A stretch of 64,000 nucleotides of DNA from a virus, in the IMG/VR virus record IMGVR_UViG_3300016471_000517, positions 53,061 through 117,060 of that record, one strand, 5' to 3'. The notes beneath the pieces were generated by a model. The model worked only from the letters and a program-made list of their open reading frames with translations. It had not been told where the DNA came from and did no database searches. Numbering within the stretch: position 1 is the first letter of the stretch; the number at the start of each line of letters is the position of its first letter. A program made the position numbers and the translations under genes. Below, piece by piece: positions 9,019-53,972 of this stretch.

Positions 9019-9090
9019 GCGGGTGTAACTCAATGGCAGAGTGCAAGCCTTCCAAGCTTGATGTTGAGGGTTCGACCCCCTTCACCCGCT
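9019..9090 (+). tRNA. tRNA-Gly(TCC), CCA not encoded
   Basis: GCGGGTG/CACCCGC acceptor, CAAGC-CTTCCAA-GCTTG anticodon arm, GTTCGA T-loop. Confidence 0.93.
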
Positions 9091-19490: not shown

Positions 19491-20264
19491 TTAGACTCTA
19501 AAGCTTGATTTTTTCTTTGTATTACCAGTTAATACGGAAACTTGTGTTCCATCTGGATTTGTCACGACCTGACTATCTGGCGGAGCATTTCTATCTTTTC
19601 TTGGTTTTAAAATATTTCCAGTCAATTTGCTAATTGCTTGTTCTTTAGTCATTCCTTGATACATACGCTCGTCTGTATCCATAGCTGGTGACGGTGTTAG
19701 TTTTGGTTCATTTGGTTCGCTAACTGTTGTCTTTATTCCTTGTACAACATTAGTTCTTGGAAGTTGACCAAAATTTAAATTCAAAGATCTAAAAGAAGAA
19801 CTTAAATCTAATGGCGATTGACTAGAAGTAGCTGTGTTTAATGTTGATGAAGTGCTATCTGGATTTATAGTTGCTGTTTCAAGTTCATATTGTCCTCTTT
19901 TTTTTGAAAGAGTGCTAGAACCGGGTCCCATAGTACCGGACATCAATTGTTCATTTAAATTAAAAATATTTGTCGTATAGTTAGCAGAGTTTCCTTTTGA
20001 GAAAGGTTTTTCTGCATTCATTCTATCACTGTAATTGTTTAAAAGATTTGATGTTTTGTCTTTTACTTCGCTACTCATTTTTGAATAGCCCAACAAAGCC
20101 TTTCTTTTTTCCATTTCGGAAATTGGTTTGGCAACATTCATGACACTTTTTATGTCTTTTAAAAGGTTTGGCTTATTTACAGGCTTTTTAGACTCATTCA
20201 AGGTTTTTCCGACAAAGAAATCCTTGACTTCCCAATAAAATTGTCTATTTTGTTTATTATCCAT
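19491..20264 (-). CDS. hypothetical late protein
   Basis: 257 aa; CTAAATA upstream. Confidence 0.7.
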   Translation of the reverse strand: MDNKQNRQFYWEVKDFFVGKTLNESKKPVNKPNLLKDIKSVMNVAKPISEMEKRKALLGYSKMSSEVKDKTSNLLNNYSDRMNAEKPFSKGNSANYTTNIFNLNEQLMSGTMGPGSSTLSKKRGQYELETATINPDSTSSTLNTATSSQSPLDLSSSFRSLNLNFGQLPRTNVVQGIKTTVSEPNEPKLTPSPAMDTDERMYQGMTKEQAISKLTGNILKPRKDRNAPPDSQVVTNPDGTQVSVLTGNTKKKSSFRV

Positions 20265-20304
20265 GGCTGTAAAATATTTAGAATTTCATAAATACTTAAA
20301 AGGT

Positions 20305-20802
20305 ATGAAAAAGCAAGTACTCTTGCTCAACCAAGACAACACACCACTCAATATTATCACTGTCGGTAAAGCTTTTAAGTTAATGTCGAATGATAAAGTT
20401 TGGGGTGACGAAACTACGACAGAATATTATGAAGTGGCATCTGTTTCAAAAATTGTAAAAATACCTAAAATTTTAATCTTAAAATACTATGTAAAATTGC
20501 CTTTCAGAAGGGCAGCACCCTCAAGAAAAAACATATTGAGAAGAGATCAATATGAATGTCAATATTGTGGTGTAGACCTTTGTGATAAGACTGCTACGGT
20601 AGATCACATAATTCCAAAATGCAGAGGTGGTGGGTCTACTTGGGTGAACTTGGTTGCTGCATGCAAAGATTGCAATTTACATAAAGGAAACAGAACACCC
20701 AAAGAAGCTAAAATGGATCTTAAAAATAAACCAAAAGAACCTTCTTATGGATTCTTTTTTGATCACATGCTAATTACTTTTAGAAAGAAAAAAAATGCCT
20801 AA
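20305..20802 (+). CDS. HNH endonuclease (McrA-like)
   Basis: VLLLN, SRKNILRRDQYECQYCG, TVDHIIP..GG..WVNLVAACKDCN..KG; CATAAATA at 20287. Confidence 0.9.
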   Translation: MKKQVLLLNQDNTPLNIITVGKAFKLMSNDKVWGDETTTEYYEVASVSKIVKIPKILILKYYVKLPFRRAAPSRKNILRRDQYECQYCGVDLCDKTATVDHIIPKCRGGGSTWVNLVAACKDCNLHKGNRTPKEAKMDLKNKPKEPSYGFFFDHMLITFRKKKNA

Positions 20803-21102: not shown

Positions 21103-21399
21103 ATGGAATACGAAATTCAAAAGGTAATATTTAAAAATTGCACCGTTTATAATATTTTACACGAATCCAATATTTTGGGTCATGTTATTCAACATGAAAA
21201 TTCAAATGTTTTGATTCAAAGTGATGAATTGCCAATAATTCCTTTGGCAGAATCTTTTGGTTTCCAAGGTCATTTTTATCTTGCCACAGAAACTGGTTAT
21301 GAATCAGTAAATTTGAATTCAACTTCAGAATTTAAACCAATTTACGAATTCAAGGTAATTAACCTTGAGAATTACCTTTTGACTGAATCAGAGCTTTAA
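21103..21399 (+). CDS. hypothetical protein
   Basis: 98-aa ORF; GATAAATA upstream. Confidence 0.6.
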   Translation: MEYEIQKVIFKNCTVYNILHESNILGHVIQHENSNVLIQSDELPIIPLAESFGFQGHFYLATETGYESVNLNSTSEFKPIYEFKVINLENYLLTESEL

Positions 21400-21919
21400 G
21401 AATATAAAAGCTATCTACAATATCAGTCACAGGATTAGATAGAGTCTTTTGATCAAACGCCAATAACAAATTGGTGTTTGTTTCTTTTGAAAAATACTCA
21501 TACATCAATGCTTTGTCTGCATTTCCTTTTCCAGTTGCCATCTTTTTTGCTTTTGAAGGTTCTATGATTGTTAGTGGAACTGCAGCTTTGTAAAGTTTGT
21601 GTTTAAATATTCCCATGTTCTCGGCAAGATTAAAAACTTTTCCTTTAGAACCAAAAGAATAACCTTCAACTGCAACATCAGACGCACCGACACAAAGATT
21701 AATGGCCCAATCAGAAATTGTGTCAAACCTATCAACATCGGCCACATATTCTTGAAAACTTTCACCGGTTATGTTTGGCAAAATTTTATCTGCGTATTTT
21801 TTAGTATTTGTCAGATAATAGAAAAAGCAGTTTTCAAATTTAAACGGCTTTCTCTCATCATAAAGACAGAGGCATGGGCATGTTATTGAATAATCTACAC
21901 CTATTAACATGTGGAACAT
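21359..21919 (-). CDS. RuvC-like (RNase H fold) resolvase/nuclease
   Basis: IGVDYSIT, VAVEGYS, KKMATGKGNADK, DIVDSF. Confidence 0.8.
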   Translation of the reverse strand: MFHMLIGVDYSITCPCLCLYDERKPFKFENCFFYYLTNTKKYADKILPNITGESFQEYVADVDRFDTISDWAINLCVGASDVAVEGYSFGSKGKVFNLAENMGIFKHKLYKAAVPLTIIEPSKAKKMATGKGNADKALMYEYFSKETNTNLLLAFDQKTLSNPVTDIVDSFYILKALIQSKGNSQG

Positions 21920-21935
21920 AGATATTTATGCCTTG

Positions 21936-22024
21936 GCCAGCGGCGGTGATTCCTGAGCATTACGATGAGCGTTTACTTCGATTGGCCCAAAAGGAATGCG
22001 CGGAACAACCCCACCGCCGCTGAC
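21936..22024 (-). ncRNA. candidate structured small RNA
   Basis: GC-rich intergenic stretch closed by a 13-bp stem (one G-U on minus strand) plus inner AUUCCU/AGGAAU stem, starting 6 nt after TATAAATA. Confidence 0.6.
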
Positions 22025-22030
22025 TAAAAA

Positions 22031-22038
22031 TATTTATA
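22031..22038 (-). promoter_or_regulatory. T4-type late promoter TATAAATA
   Basis: Exact consensus, no adjacent start codon. Confidence 0.75.
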
Positions 22039-22041
22039 AAA

Positions 22042-23763
22042 TTATGCCATTTTTATTTGTTTTAGTCTATCTGTAACACTAGACCCTTTATTTTTCTTGG
22101 CAATAGTATCCCAAAAAGCTTTTCCTTTTGGATCCGCCAACATGTCAATAATTTGCATAGTTCTGCCACTAGTGTCTCGGAAAAAACCTTTTTTCCATTT
22201 TTCAATAATTTCTTTTGACAGACGAGCGGCTTCTTCCGCCGGCATATTAACATCTACGTGAGGGTATCCCTTTGAATACATCCATTCTTTTGCATCACTA
22301 ATCTGACTTGGTAGTTCTCTATTTGATAGATAATCTTGAGTATCTTTAACAGATTTGTCAGCGATATTTATAATGTTTTGTCTCACTCTAGGAAAAATTT
22401 GTGGATCTGTTATATCCGAAATATTTTGCTCTCTATGAACTTTTTGTAAAATAGAGTGAGTTTTTGGTTTTAAATCCTTTGGTGTCTGGGATTTTACAAT
22501 ATCCATCACAGTTCCAGCCGGTACACCCCATGACTGGTCCATATTTCCAAGATCCGCTTCTAATCCAGTTATATTTGTTTGTGGAACAACATCACCAAAT
22601 ACTTGTCTTAACTTTGGATTAGTGTTTGATTCTATGTCCAGTAGTTTTTTAAATTTTTGTGATGAATTTGGGCTATTCTGTGCTTGAAGTGCAAGTTCTC
22701 CAAATTTAAATTGTGGATCTGTTGCGGCAATCCCGTGACCTGCCTCATGTGCCAATGTAGCTATTGTAATATTTTTTGGATCAGTTGATATATTTAAATT
22801 GATAGGAACTGAAGTTTGATTACCCAAATCTCTACCTTTATTTGCATTTGCATAAGCCGCTACCATGCTTGGAGGCATAATAGGTGAAAACTGTGCTTCT
22901 GGTTTTGACCTAAAAATTGCTGGATTAGTTCCTAGATAAATGTCAATTGGTCTCTCTAGAGCATCTTTTGAATAAGATGGAAACATGTACGAAGATACAT
23001 TATTTGGGTTAAATGATGGGTCTACTAATCGTCTTTGCCCACGTGTTGCGAGTTTGGCATATTTCTCTGCATTTTTGCCGTATATGCCTTGTAAAAGTTC
23101 TCCCCAAGAAAGAGTTGCTTGTGGATTATCTATGTCTGGAACCACTGCTCCAAGTAATTCAAAATCTTCTACTTGTTTAATATTTGGATTACTTATTGTT
23201 GTCATGAGTATTCTATTAAATGGATCTTTTGAAGCCCTAGAGATTTTTTCCAATCCCTCTGGATTGTTTTGCCAATCTTTTGCTTGAGATCTCATCATAT
23301 CAGCAACATCTCTTGCTTTTTTGCCAGCCAAATTGCCAGCCAAATTTTTTCCAGTATTTGCAATTCTTCCAACGGCTGGAATCATTCCGAATAGAGGAAC
23401 GGTGGAAGCTAAAGATGCCTTTACACCTTCTTTATCTCCTTGGGCAGCATACAAGGCAGCATCAGCCAAATCTGCTAGTTCCCCGACAACTGGGACCATT
23501 CCTGCCGCAGCCAAACCGCTATGGTATGTGTCTGGATCCGTAAATAAAGATTTACCATATTCTTTTGCAAACATCATAGGATCTGAAGCAATACCCTGAC
23601 CTACTTCAGTAGCGTAATCTTTTATTTCGGAACCAATTTTTTGAGATGCTTGTTGAAGTCTTTTGCCAAGCACTCCTAAAGGTGCCTTTAATCTGGAAGA
23701 GCTGGCGTATGATCTACCACCATCATCCAAACCTTCAATCAAAAATTGTTTAAATCTCAGCAT
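22042..23763 (-). CDS. putative capsid-targeted protein with pre-toxin-like domain and HEXXH metallopeptidase motif
   Basis: MLRFKQFLIE leader; AAGMVPVVGELADLADAALYAAQGD...VPLFG; TLAHEAGHG. Confidence 0.65.
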   Translation of the reverse strand: MLRFKQFLIEGLDDGGRSYASSSRLKAPLGVLGKRLQQASQKIGSEIKDYATEVGQGIASDPMMFAKEYGKSLFTDPDTYHSGLAAAGMVPVVGELADLADAALYAAQGDKEGVKASLASTVPLFGMIPAVGRIANTGKNLAGNLAGKKARDVADMMRSQAKDWQNNPEGLEKISRASKDPFNRILMTTISNPNIKQVEDFELLGAVVPDIDNPQATLSWGELLQGIYGKNAEKYAKLATRGQRRLVDPSFNPNNVSSYMFPSYSKDALERPIDIYLGTNPAIFRSKPEAQFSPIMPPSMVAAYANANKGRDLGNQTSVPINLNISTDPKNITIATLAHEAGHGIAATDPQFKFGELALQAQNSPNSSQKFKKLLDIESNTNPKLRQVFGDVVPQTNITGLEADLGNMDQSWGVPAGTVMDIVKSQTPKDLKPKTHSILQKVHREQNISDITDPQIFPRVRQNIINIADKSVKDTQDYLSNRELPSQISDAKEWMYSKGYPHVDVNMPAEEAARLSKEIIEKWKKGFFRDTSGRTMQIIDMLADPKGKAFWDTIAKKNKGSSVTDRLKQIKMA

Positions 23764-23768
23764 ACCAA

Positions 23769-23776
23769 TATTTATA
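23769..23776 (-). promoter_or_regulatory. T4-type late promoter TATAAATA
   Basis: Exact consensus 5 nt before ATG. Confidence 0.75.
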
Positions 23777-23804: not shown

Positions 23805-23812
23805 TTTTTATG

Positions 23813-23886
23813 CTCCTCGGGTTGGAATCGAACCAACGACATCAAAATTAACAGTTTTGCGCTGCTACCAACTGAGCTACAGAGGA
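23813..23886 (-). tRNA. tRNA-Asn(GTT), CCA not encoded
   Basis: TAGCTCAGTTGGTAG D-arm, CAAAA-CTGTTAA-TTTTG anticodon arm, GTTCGATT; one acceptor-stem mismatch. Confidence 0.9.
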
Positions 23887-52199: not shown

Positions 52200-53972
52200 T
52201 TAAATTGGTTTTATAATCATTTCTTTTAAAAATTCTTCCTCATTTAAAAAAGGACTCATATTTTCTAAAGGCTGTGATACAAGTTTTCCCTCAAAATTTA
52301 TTTTTGCTGATGATGATGGTGACATATCTTGTTTGAAAGGACATATTACTTCAGTCAGAGAATAACCGTCAACATTTAATATGTCAAGCAATTTTTTATC
52401 AATATCTTCTCCAGTTTCTAATTTATGATATGGTATATCATATGCGTTTGCAATTTTTAAAATTTTTGGAAAAGAAAGACCAGAATTTTTATCAGTCCCG
52501 AAGTAACGACTTTCAAAAAATTTGTCCATAGTGTTTCTAATTGACAGATAACCACCATTATTTAAGACAAAAATTTTGATTGGTAAATTGTAATTGACAA
52601 TTGTTTGCAATTCCTGTAAATTCATTTGAAAGGAGCCATCGCCTGTAATAGCAATTACTTTCTTTTTCACATCAGATGCGATTGCAACCCCTATAGCCGC
52701 TGGAATAGAAAATCCCATATCTGCTTGTGCCCCTGATGTGATATATCTTTGTTGTTTTTTTATTTTTAAACCCTGCGAAGTAGCATAATAAGCAGAACCA
52801 GCATCACTTATAACTATACTGTCTGAACTCATTTTCTTTGAAAGTTCTTCTATAAAATAGTAAATGTTTATCCCATTTGTGGTATCTTTATATTTTTCAG
52901 TAAATACTGGCCATTTATTTCTCCATCCAATGCATTTTTCAATCCAATCTTGATTTGTTTTGTACTCAATATTTTTTGTTTGTTCAAAAAAAACTTTGAT
53001 ATCAGTATTGATTTCAGCATCAACTCGTATAGTTTTCTTTTTATGTTCGTGTTGATCAATGTCTACAACTAACACTTTTGCATCTCTCGCAAAAGTTTCA
53101 TATCTAAACCCTGTGACAGAAACACTCAAACTACTTCCTAGCGATATTATCAAATCGCTATTTTGAACAGCAAAATTTCCTGCTCTGTCTCCTTTGGTGC
53201 CTAATCTACCAACATACAAAGGATGATCTGATGGAAGAAAATCGATCCCTAAGTAAGTAAATGTCACAGGAATATTGTATTTTTCAATAAATTCTACAAA
53301 CTGTTTTTTGGCATCTCCTAGTTGAATTCCATAACCAGCAATTACAATAGGTCGTTTTGCATTTTTAATGTAAGTTTCAAAAATAGAGCAATCTACGTTT
53401 ACAAACGATTCTTCGGGGGTAAAATGAATAAGTTCGGATTCATTTATTAAACTACCCTGTATATCCATAGGAACATCAATCCAAACTGGCCCCGGTCTGC
53501 CAGACTCACAAAGATAAAATGCTTTTTCTAAATGATAAGCAATTGTATTTGGTTCAGTAATCATTACTGAATATTTTGTAATCGGTTTGACTATATCAAC
53601 TATGTTTGCTTCTTGTACTCCAAATTTTCTCAAAGGAACTGAAAATCCGTGGGTTGTTTCTTTTTTATTAACATTTCCTGATATAAAAACTACCTTATTG
53701 CTATCTTGCCAAGCATCAAGAACTCCAGTAATTGTATTAGTTCCCCCACAACCTGTAGTGGGCATTACTACTGAAATTTCATTAGTGTATTTTGAATATC
53801 CCACAGCTCCCATAGCAGAAGCTTGTTCGTGGTGATTAAAGATACCTTTTATAATTTTACTTTTTGCAATACCATCATTAAGGAACATTGCACCACCACC
53901 AGTAACCATGAACACGTGACGTATTCCTTTTTTTTCTAAAAATTTAGCAATGTAATCTGCAACTTTTACCAT
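52200..53972 (-). CDS. ThDP-dependent acetolactate-synthase-like enzyme (YerE-like)
   Basis: HHEQ, SGRPGPVWIDVP.D, GDGSFQMNLQEL..NNGGY. Confidence 0.9.
   Translation of the reverse strand: MVKVADYIAKFLEKKGIRHVFMVTGGGAMFLNDGIAKSKIIKGIFNHHEQASAMGAVGYSKYTNEISVVMPTTGCGGTNTITGVLDAWQDSNKVVFISGNVNKKETTHGFSVPLRKFGVQEANIVDIVKPITKYSVMITEPNTIAYHLEKAFYLCESGRPGPVWIDVPMDIQGSLINESELIHFTPEESFVNVDCSIFETYIKNAKRPIVIAGYGIQLGDAKKQFVEFIEKYNIPVTFTYLGIDFLPSDHPLYVGRLGTKGDRAGNFAVQNSDLIISLGSSLSVSVTGFRYETFARDAKVLVVDIDQHEHKKKTIRVDAEINTDIKVFFEQTKNIEYKTNQDWIEKCIGWRNKWPVFTEKYKDTTNGINIYYFIEELSKKMSSDSIVISDAGSAYYATSQGLKIKKQQRYITSGAQADMGFSIPAAIGVAIASDVKKKVIAITGDGSFQMNLQELQTIVNYNLPIKIFVLNNGGYLSIRNTMDKFFESRYFGTDKNSGLSFPKILKIANAYDIPYHKLETGEDIDKKLLDILNVDGYSLTEVICPFKQDMSPSSSAKINFEGKLVSQPLENMSPFLNEEEFLKEMIIKPI

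Follow-up and report, generated by a model that had tools for sequence, protein, structure and literature searches.

A covariation-supported RNA element upstream of ruvC in freshwater T4-like phages, homologous to peptidase coding sequence and a possible leader structure

Among T4-type phages, messenger RNA hairpins accompany a set of genes with late promoters, among them e, soc, 25, 26, and 39 and the genes for I-TevI, I-TevII, I-TevIII, SegB, and, in Aeh1, MobE (PMC2988022). These hairpins sequester the ribosome-binding site and form only on the longer early and middle transcripts, and nuclease expression in T4 is described as tightly controlled by RNA hairpins (PMC2988022). The same source describes, for seg43(25) of Aeromonas phage 25, an "unusual" and very stable predicted hairpin that stands immediately upstream of the ribosome-binding site, does not sequester it, and has no known function (PMC2988022). 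Here we describe a structured element of about 90 nucleotides (nt) that precedes a gene for a RuvC-like Holliday-junction resolvase in IMG/VR virus record IMGVR_UViG_3300016471_000517. The stretch analyzed, referred to as the window, comprises the 64,000 nt from positions 53,061 to 117,060 of this 117-kb record, whose estimated completeness is 58%, and the element is given in window coordinates, on the minus strand. On strong comparative support, the element is a real structured RNA kept by compensatory substitutions. It is absent from Rfam 15 and has an apparent, traceable origin in coding sequence, which is unusual.

Read along the minus strand, the site runs from TATAAATA (22038 to 22031) through UUUUUA, the hairpin (G22024 to C21936), CAAGG, CATAAATA (21930 to 21923), and UCU to the annotated ATG (21919). 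The hairpin (21936 to 22024) is irregular, with four helices and 28 pairs that rest on its fold, on covariance models, and on covariation. In helix 1, GUCAGCGGCGGUG (22012 to 22024) pairs with CACCGCCGCUGGC (21936 to 21948) through 13 pairs, one of them G-U, just as described by a first-pass annotation that had proposed a novel, late-expressed structured RNA at this site. Inside this outer stem lie 62 nt of loops and irregular helices, with helix 2 formed by GUUCC/GGAAU (22002 to 22006 with 21949 to 21953), helix 3 by GCAUU/AAUGC (21995 to 21999 with 21957 to 21961), and helix 4 by UGGGC/GCUCA (21985 to 21989 with 21966 to 21970). The 14-nt apical loop (21971 to 21984) holds the conserved motif UCGAAGUA (21974 to 21981). 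An inner AUUCCU/AGGAAU stem, also proposed at first pass, was not borne out: homologues read AGUCCU or AAUCCU opposite AGGAAC, and it is the three other helices that covary. The minus-strand segment from 22030 to 21930 folds with a minimum free energy of -40.8 kcal/mol, compared with -29.8 ± 3.5 kcal/mol in 200 dinucleotide shuffles (z = -3.18), none of which equaled it. When a 176-nt transcript was folded, the hairpin formed a separate domain that closes at 21936, with AAGG (21934 to 21931) and the AUG (21919) outside it and the AUG free. A possible pseudoknot, in which the 3' tail (AAGG, GAGG, or ACGG) would pair with the pyrimidine-rich internal loop, was considered and dropped, as the variants showed no consistent covariation by eye.

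Like the T4-type late hairpins, the element belongs to a T4-like phage, stands as a stable hairpin shortly before a late gene for a nuclease, and is accompanied by a putative late promoter of the TATAAATA type from which transcripts would exclude the hairpin (PMC2988022). The second box is placed past the entire hairpin, and transcripts starting from it would exclude the structure. Unlike those hairpins, however, the element ends 16 nt before the AUG, leaves the AUG free, and pairs with neither the Shine-Dalgarno sequence nor the start codon. It also has its own late-type box, is far longer (28 pairs in four helices), and carries a conserved loop. The closest architectural parallel that we found is the seg43(25) hairpin, compared by its description only and not by sequence; the passage that describes it makes no mention of covariation, a conserved loop, or a coding-region homologue (PMC2988022).

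The evidence for a structured RNA comes from homologues. A RuvC query against IMG/VR gave 297 related stretches, 80 of which were fetched and analyzed; the relatives are freshwater T4-like phage contigs. Of the 77 loci whose upstream DNA reaches far enough, 52 have the hairpin directly before ruvC; these represent 32 distinct versions, which pair despite their differences in stem sequence. A covariance model (R1) was built from 12 copies, and a second model (R2) together with a second RuvC query brought the collection to 63 distinct copies. The two models score 106.7 and 88.6 bits, respectively, on window positions 21931 to 22024, while reverse-strand scores are 16 to 19 bits. Of the 81 sources searched, the window and the 80 loci, 76 carry the element, in each case on the ruvC strand, and the other five are without the upstream DNA.

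Covariation among homologues, the check suggested at first pass, is strong. Across the 63 distinct copies, 92.8% of the alignment cells are paired and 26 of the 28 pairs have changed on both sides; the covariation score is 0.562, compared with 0.209 for shuffled alignments (0 of 500 reach the observed value) and at most 0.145 with slid partners. Helix 1 has changed on both sides at all 13 of its pairs, with 92.3% of cells paired. For helices 2, 3, and 4, the corresponding counts are 4 of 5, 5 of 5, and 4 of 5 pairs, with 94.1%, 96.2%, and 89.4% of cells paired. The alignments A4 and A6, the 63-copy alignment included, were fitted to the model and so lean towards the structure. A structure-blind MAFFT alignment of 12 copies has 94.3% of cells paired and a score of 0.308, compared with 0.160 when shuffled (0 of 500 reach it), and RNAalifold recovered the outer stem from a 32-copy MAFFT alignment, with both-side changes in 10 of 11 pairs. 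The apical loop is conserved in a different manner: its hexamer is UCGAAG in 56 of the 63 distinct copies and UCUAAG in the remaining 7, and the other loop bases vary freely.

The same substitutions bear on whether the segment encodes a small protein on either strand. The window does hold a 31-codon plus-strand open reading frame (ORF), whose conservation the first-pass annotation had named as the alternative to an RNA, and one subfamily has a 27-codon sense ORF. Across the 32 distinct copies, however, the best frame is open in only 14 and the 31-codon frame in 7, and the substitutions are paired across the stem. We consider an encoded small protein very improbable.

The strand was less obvious from the fold. 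The plus strand folds nearly as well (-35.6 kcal/mol, z = -3.13), and of 34 distinct homologues only 15 have the more stable fold on the sense strand (P = 0.30), so that fold energy has no preference for the sense strand, a point that weighs against a transcribed RNA. The first-pass annotation had called the strand from the single G-U pair; that argument is weak by itself, and the call gains from wobble counts taken over the homologues. In the outer stem, G-U pairs outnumber A-C pairs 14 to 2, and overall, with the two end pairs excluded, the counts are 37 and 17, both leaning to the sense strand. All 66 model matches are oriented with the downstream genes. The element is taken here as an RNA of the transcribed strand.

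The RNA does not belong to a described family, as far as the searches reached, in agreement with the first-pass call of a novel structure. Rfam 15, run over the whole window at the gathering threshold, returned two transfer RNAs (tRNAs) only and no family on the hairpin, and over positions 21700 to 22300 with E values up to 10 it gave four weak matches, none within the hairpin. A weak match to RAGATH-17 at 22037 to 22129 scored 24.3 bits against a threshold of 102.3. ARAGORN found no tRNA or transfer-messenger RNA at the element, in keeping with the earlier remark that it is not a tRNA cloverleaf; its only finds in the window were a tRNA-Gly (9019 to 9090) and a tRNA-Asn (23812 to 23886). A blastn search in distant mode with a 1.4-kb query found no match in 50,697 phage records, and a literature search by title and the start of abstracts found no description of the element. 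The 117-kb record holds a single copy by both blastn and the covariance model, and each of five other records holds a single sense-strand copy. A scan with a 14-base pattern proved too unspecific: among the matches listed, nhmmer confirmed true elements in 0 of 120 genome-contig stretches and 27 of 115 viral stretches, and no clue to the host emerged.

An analogy with the stable RNAs of T4 had also been drawn at first pass. The T4 RNAs rnaC and rnaD (species 1 and 2) are likewise noncoding RNAs of unknown function in a T4-type phage, and many of the related loci have the element just past a tRNA gene and terminator. In several loci a tRNA 3' end and a terminator precede it; in the window, the distance to the nearest tRNA is 1.8 kb. 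However, R2 run with filters off on T4 positions 68000 to 76000, the 8-kb tRNA region, gave a best score of 9.9 bits (E = 0.79) outside rnaC and rnaD, and 5.8 bits over part of rnaD. Within T4 positions 70908 to 71171, rnaC has a branched fold that ends in a tRNA-like T arm and is far better than that of its shuffles (z = -4.57), and rnaD folds no better than its shuffles (z = -0.83). Both T4 RNAs directly adjoin tRNA genes, whereas the element here has its own late-type box. Homology to rnaC and rnaD was rejected on model search and fold, which weakens the analogy.

A different relationship was found in the 25 loci that seemed to lack the element. These carry it 600 to 700 nt further upstream, inside an ORF. 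The ORF encodes a lipoprotein of 265 amino acids, with a signal peptide that ends in a lipobox Cys, a Pfam Trypsin domain from about residue 63 to 74, and a GDSGG motif. Its ATG comes after the same CTAAATATTTTTGCC box that precedes the noncoding copies, and the element lies about 100 nt past that box, in frame, in the 5' part of the gene. The embedded segment encodes QGVAEVPAFLLDSSKYDSIGLAEDDRYSCVG and forms the same four helices, with energies of -41.8 to -50.7 kcal/mol; the 3' strand of helix 1 encodes part of DDRYSCVG. Among peptidases that are 62 to 66% identical, the stem arms are nearly identical in nucleotides, and helix 3 changes in step with the encoded residues (IGLA, IKSA, IECA, and IEAD). 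These comparisons show homology between the element and part of the 5' coding region of a gene for a lipoprotein trypsin-like peptidase. Peptidases of this kind (about 265 amino acids, with the lipobox, GDSGG, and a C-terminal CDWPW) are found in many contigs of freshwater phages, with a late-type box on one side and ruvC on the other, an example being L002:2197-2994, with relatives in L082 to L109 and L439 to L459. The 21 peptidase homologues found are all 254 to 277 amino acids long, and none has a functional name.

More distant peptidases suggest the direction of change. Those about 50% identical keep the peptide FLLDP.KYD.IE and are without the outer stem, the UCGAAG, and a model match. 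Those about 33% identical are missing seven residues and have neither outer stem nor model match, although they also precede a ruvC gene. Since the distant peptidases keep the peptide and lack the fold, the segment would be ordinary peptidase coding sequence that gained the fold in one clade. Synonymous-site conservation in the peptidase gene is 0.71 to 0.90 over the first 75 or so alignment columns, compared with 0.48 to 0.79 over columns 81 to 250, a signal not specific to the element, as the raised part includes the signal-peptide region, the last windows reach 0.81 to 0.83, and close relatives dominate the sample. The free-standing copies are most simply read as the remnant left after loss of the signal-peptide part and the protease domain.

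That origin raises the question of whether the free-standing copies are functionless relics of the peptidase gene, in which a palindrome persists by templated (quasi-palindrome) repair or has had too little time to decay. The clear homology to a peptidase coding segment fits such a relic, as do the lineages that are entirely without the element. However, the outer stem has been almost wholly turned over between noncoding subfamilies with pairing kept, all 13 pairs having changed on both sides. The 3' strand could not vary in this way while encoding DDRYSCVG, and the stem changes would therefore postdate the loss of coding. The loop hexamer is fixed though neighboring loop bases vary, and the element is kept wherever upstream DNA is present in a group whose RuvC identities range from 65 to 99%. 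We consider a relic improbable. Because the outer stems have changed on both strands in ways that a strand coding for DDRYSCVG could not tolerate, the structure appears to be under selection in the noncoding state.

A palindrome found both in frame and in noncoding DNA also invites comparison with mobile elements. Rickettsia palindromic elements and other palindromes that resemble miniature inverted-repeat transposable elements sit in frame inside genes, and the element resembles them as a palindromic segment of about 90 nt that occurs both in frame in an ORF and in noncoding DNA. It differs in that there is one copy per record, at the same locus; in that its arms covary (13 of 13 outer pairs changed) rather than forming conserved terminal repeats; and in that distant relatives have ordinary peptidase sequence homologous to the in-frame segment. 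A mobile palindrome of that type was excluded by copy number and by the covariation of the arms.

The loci fall into four arrangements around a mosaic junction. In the majority, which includes the window, the order is box, element, box, and ruvC. In a second arrangement the box is followed by a single ORF made up of signal peptide, element, and peptidase, and then by ruvC. In a third, three genes are inserted between the second box and ruvC, leaving the element 2.4 to 2.5 kb from ruvC. The inserted genes encode 244, 396, and 175 amino acids; in L266 (reverse strand) they lie 21 to 2461 nt past the element, and they occur also in G007, G008, and G010. The element is kept in every locus of the main group that has upstream DNA, with RuvC proteins 65 to 99% identical to that of the window. 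Because the element stays at the promoter despite the three-gene insertion, and is found at the same box in the peptidase form, it appears to be tied to the promoter at the head of the unit and not to the ruvC start.

RuvC genes 99% identical to that of the window are found behind the peptidase form, and the junction is evidently a recombination hot spot. Genes for HNH endonucleases flank the locus in several phages, at window positions 20263 to 20802 (plus strand), at L002:1760-2125 (plus strand), and upstream of the element in L037 and L041. Their presence, taken with the varied upstream arrangements found behind nearly identical ruvC genes, suggests exchange at the junction driven by endonucleases. 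Such a place could be marked at the level of DNA, by an imperfect palindrome that folds in single-stranded DNA or by a recombination or cassette junction mark beside the resolvase gene; a site for priming or recombination would be one example. The near-equal folding of both strands and the hot spot itself, with nearly identical RuvC genes beside different upstream states and HNH genes nearby, would suit a DNA element. A long hairpin with a conserved loop hexamer also resembles the single-strand origins found in rolling-circle plasmids. However, the excess of G-U over A-C in the outer stem favors an RNA of the transcribed strand, and the 62 nt of irregular helices and loops within that stem are ill suited to cruciform extrusion from duplex DNA. 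The fixed spacing from the promoter box and the transcription orientation in all 66 matches point to a transcript. A DNA-level role is unlikely on this evidence.

The likely transcript depends on the two boxes. The first late-promoter-like box (TATAAATA, 22031 to 22038) lies six bases ahead of the first paired G of the hairpin, as had been noticed at first pass, and among distinct noncoding copies with upstream sequence, a TAAATA core stands 5 to 6 nt ahead of the model start in 45 of 45, the first box being intact in all. The 117-kb record has 53 NATAAATA sites; for 17 of these, the ATG of an ORF of at least 50 amino acids comes 3 to 11 nt later, and for 13 of the 17 it comes 5 to 7 nt later. 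As a bare 8-mer, TATAAATA is not enriched in the window (10 found and 7.0 expected, with 23 of 100 shuffles reaching 10). Because the spacing of NATAAATA to start codons is far from random, the box seems to behave as a gene-start signal of the T4 late-promoter type. The label "late promoter" is putative and rests on the motif, the spacing to start codons, and the T4-like replication genes of the record, which match PHROGs for a DNA polymerase (phrog_262), a DnaB-like helicase, and an SbcC-like subunit. With boxes 5 to 7 nt before the ATG, many late messages of this phage may have little or no leader; a few boxes, by contrast, are followed by a leader of 16 to 20 nt that carries AAGGA.

The second box (CATAAATA, 21923 to 21930) lies three bases ahead of the annotated ATG (21919 to 21917). 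The first-pass annotation had assigned the RuvC-like gene this box of its own, which is present, and had concluded that the hairpin was probably not just the leader of that gene, which the findings below weaken. The TAAATA core of the second box is present beside 44 of 46 distinct noncoding elements and is broken (TATAAGTA or TATAGATA) in 13 of 52 loci. There is no terminator-like site 3' of the hairpin, where the sequence directly following the stem is CCAAGGCAUAAAUA; the sole minus-strand match is internal (22014 to 22000). The hairpin was thus rejected as an intrinsic terminator. Transcription of ruvC probably passes through the element, given the lack of a terminator behind the hairpin and the contrast between a first box intact in 45 of 45 copies and a second one with a broken core in 13 of 52 loci. 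Between stem and gene lies AAGG (21931 to 21934), 11 nt ahead of the annotated ATG, with a GG that is invariant in the 32 distinct noncoding copies; it is a possible Shine-Dalgarno sequence for transcripts that carry the hairpin.

From these observations, we tentatively favor, with somewhat less than even confidence, the view that the element originated in coding sequence, was exapted, and now serves the late ruvC unit as a cis-acting 5' leader structure. The absence of a terminator, the second box broken in 13 of 52 loci, the conserved GG, and the independent fold that leaves the AUG free are the points that speak for a leader. The element would be transcribed from the T4-type late promoter box and would form the first 90 nt or so of a late transcript into the RuvC-like resolvase gene. 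The fold would have arisen inside the peptidase gene and been retained as a noncoding leader once the rest of the gene was lost, and it would act in cis on the late ruvC transcript. A 5'-terminal stem without free 5' bases would shield the RNA from decay that depends on the 5' end, and the conserved loop may be recognized by a protein or nuclease that controls how stable the message is or how it is processed.

Parallels for such a leader exist. Phage and bacterial mRNAs have hairpins that stabilize a 5' end, such as the stem-loop of ompA, or that are processed by RNase III, such as the intergenic sites of T7; these are not known to require a conserved apical loop sequence. The element resembles them in its stem, which starts at or next to the predicted 5' end, and in being an irregular hairpin with over 20 pairs, located between transcription signals and the gene that follows them. 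An RNase III site is an irregular duplex of about 20 bp or more, and the 28 pairs of the element would allow cleavage. The antitermination RNA put of phage HK022 is promoter-proximal and cis-acting, with a two-hairpin architecture. The element also lies next to its putative promoter; the two-hairpin architecture is not seen in it, and in the window, where ruvC is the last gene before a convergent block, there is no evident downstream terminator for it to override.

Several observations weigh against the cis-acting leader. An invariant loop hexamer would not be needed by a plain 5' stabilizer. The hairpin of the peptidase form lies away from the 5' end and is translated, so that one cis mechanism must stretch over both contexts. 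The second box is intact in most loci, and ruvC need not depend on the hairpin transcript. A fourth arrangement is without the element altogether, with ribonucleotide reductase, a terminator, GATAAATA, and ruvC in three loci (L377, L386, and L396), and the 94-kb record G006, about 50% complete, has no copy anywhere. Because of these three loci and this record, the element appears to be dispensable in some lineages. Finally, the 5' end, the 3' end, and the read-through of the element's transcript are all inferred. In the element-free lineage, GAGG stands between the GATAAATA box and ruvC, and this lineage offers a natural "deletion" control.

We rank second a stand-alone late small RNA, which would start at the first box, gain its 3' end by cleavage in the AU-rich stretch after the stem, and act in trans through the UCGAAGUA loop on a phage or host RNA or protein. 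Such an RNA would account for a loop hexamer that stays invariant (UCGAAG in 56 of 63 copies, UCUAAG in 7) while the remaining loop varies. The box-hairpin-box cassette is unbroken where cargo genes are inserted downstream, the helix starts at a fixed 5 to 6 nt from the box, and a second box is available to the downstream gene in most loci. However, the hairpin has no terminator behind it, 13 of 52 loci have a broken second box, the element has a fixed position heading one operon, and in the peptidase form it lies inside an ORF. Nor is there an enriched complementary site for the loop: T[AG]CTTCGA occurs six times in the 117-kb record compared with about seven expected, one of the six being the element's own antisense. 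We hold a stand-alone RNA to be possible and less likely than the leader. Slightly more doubtful still is a bolder proposal in which the fold, born in the linker and first strand of the peptidase coding sequence, outlived its gene and is now an independent late RNA of about 90 nt whose UCGAAGUA loop engages a phage or host factor in trans.

Some features of the neighborhood remain to be described. The RuvC-like gene is an ORF of 186 amino acids (21359 to 21919, minus strand; phrog_159, E = 5.9e-27), the last gene of the unit headed by the element and the final gene before a convergent block. Its true start is probably the second ATG (21910 to 21908), 12 nt past the second box, because the upstream ATG is out of frame with the second in L371 and L373, and in L266 and the distant L118 group ruvC starts at the equivalent of the second ATG (MLIGIDYS or MVIAGIDYS). 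The G+C content, described at first pass as a GC-rich island, is 0.44 to 0.46 in 100-nt windows at the element and mostly 0.29 to 0.41 in the flanks; the covariance-model match itself has 0.59. Immediately upstream of the element is an ORF of 573 amino acids (22042 to 23763, minus strand) for which Pfam and PHROGs gave no match. A TATAAATA of its own lies 5 nt ahead of its ATG (box at 23769 to 23776, minus strand), and no terminator separates the ORF from the element. Almost none of the related loci have this ORF, and its position is otherwise occupied by a tRNA gene, an HNH gene, or a different ORF.

RNA structures of uncultivated phages that are supported by covariation and lie outside Rfam are candidates for new regulatory mechanisms. 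Comparative support for this one is unusually good, with 63 distinct copies and both-side changes in 26 of 28 pairs. One data set holds a series that runs from peptidases without the fold, through peptidases with an in-frame fold, to free noncoding copies whose stem has been turned over by compensatory change. To our knowledge, such an evolutionary series has rarely been documented in one data set, and the element offers a test case for the birth of a structured RNA from coding sequence. Were the trans-acting RNA to prove true, it would be a documented birth of a noncoding RNA gene from coding sequence, with the coding, noncoding, and prestructure stages all present in sister phages. More broadly, the element suggests that the late operon that would supply the Holliday-junction resolvase in T4-like phages carries a second level of control or a small RNA.

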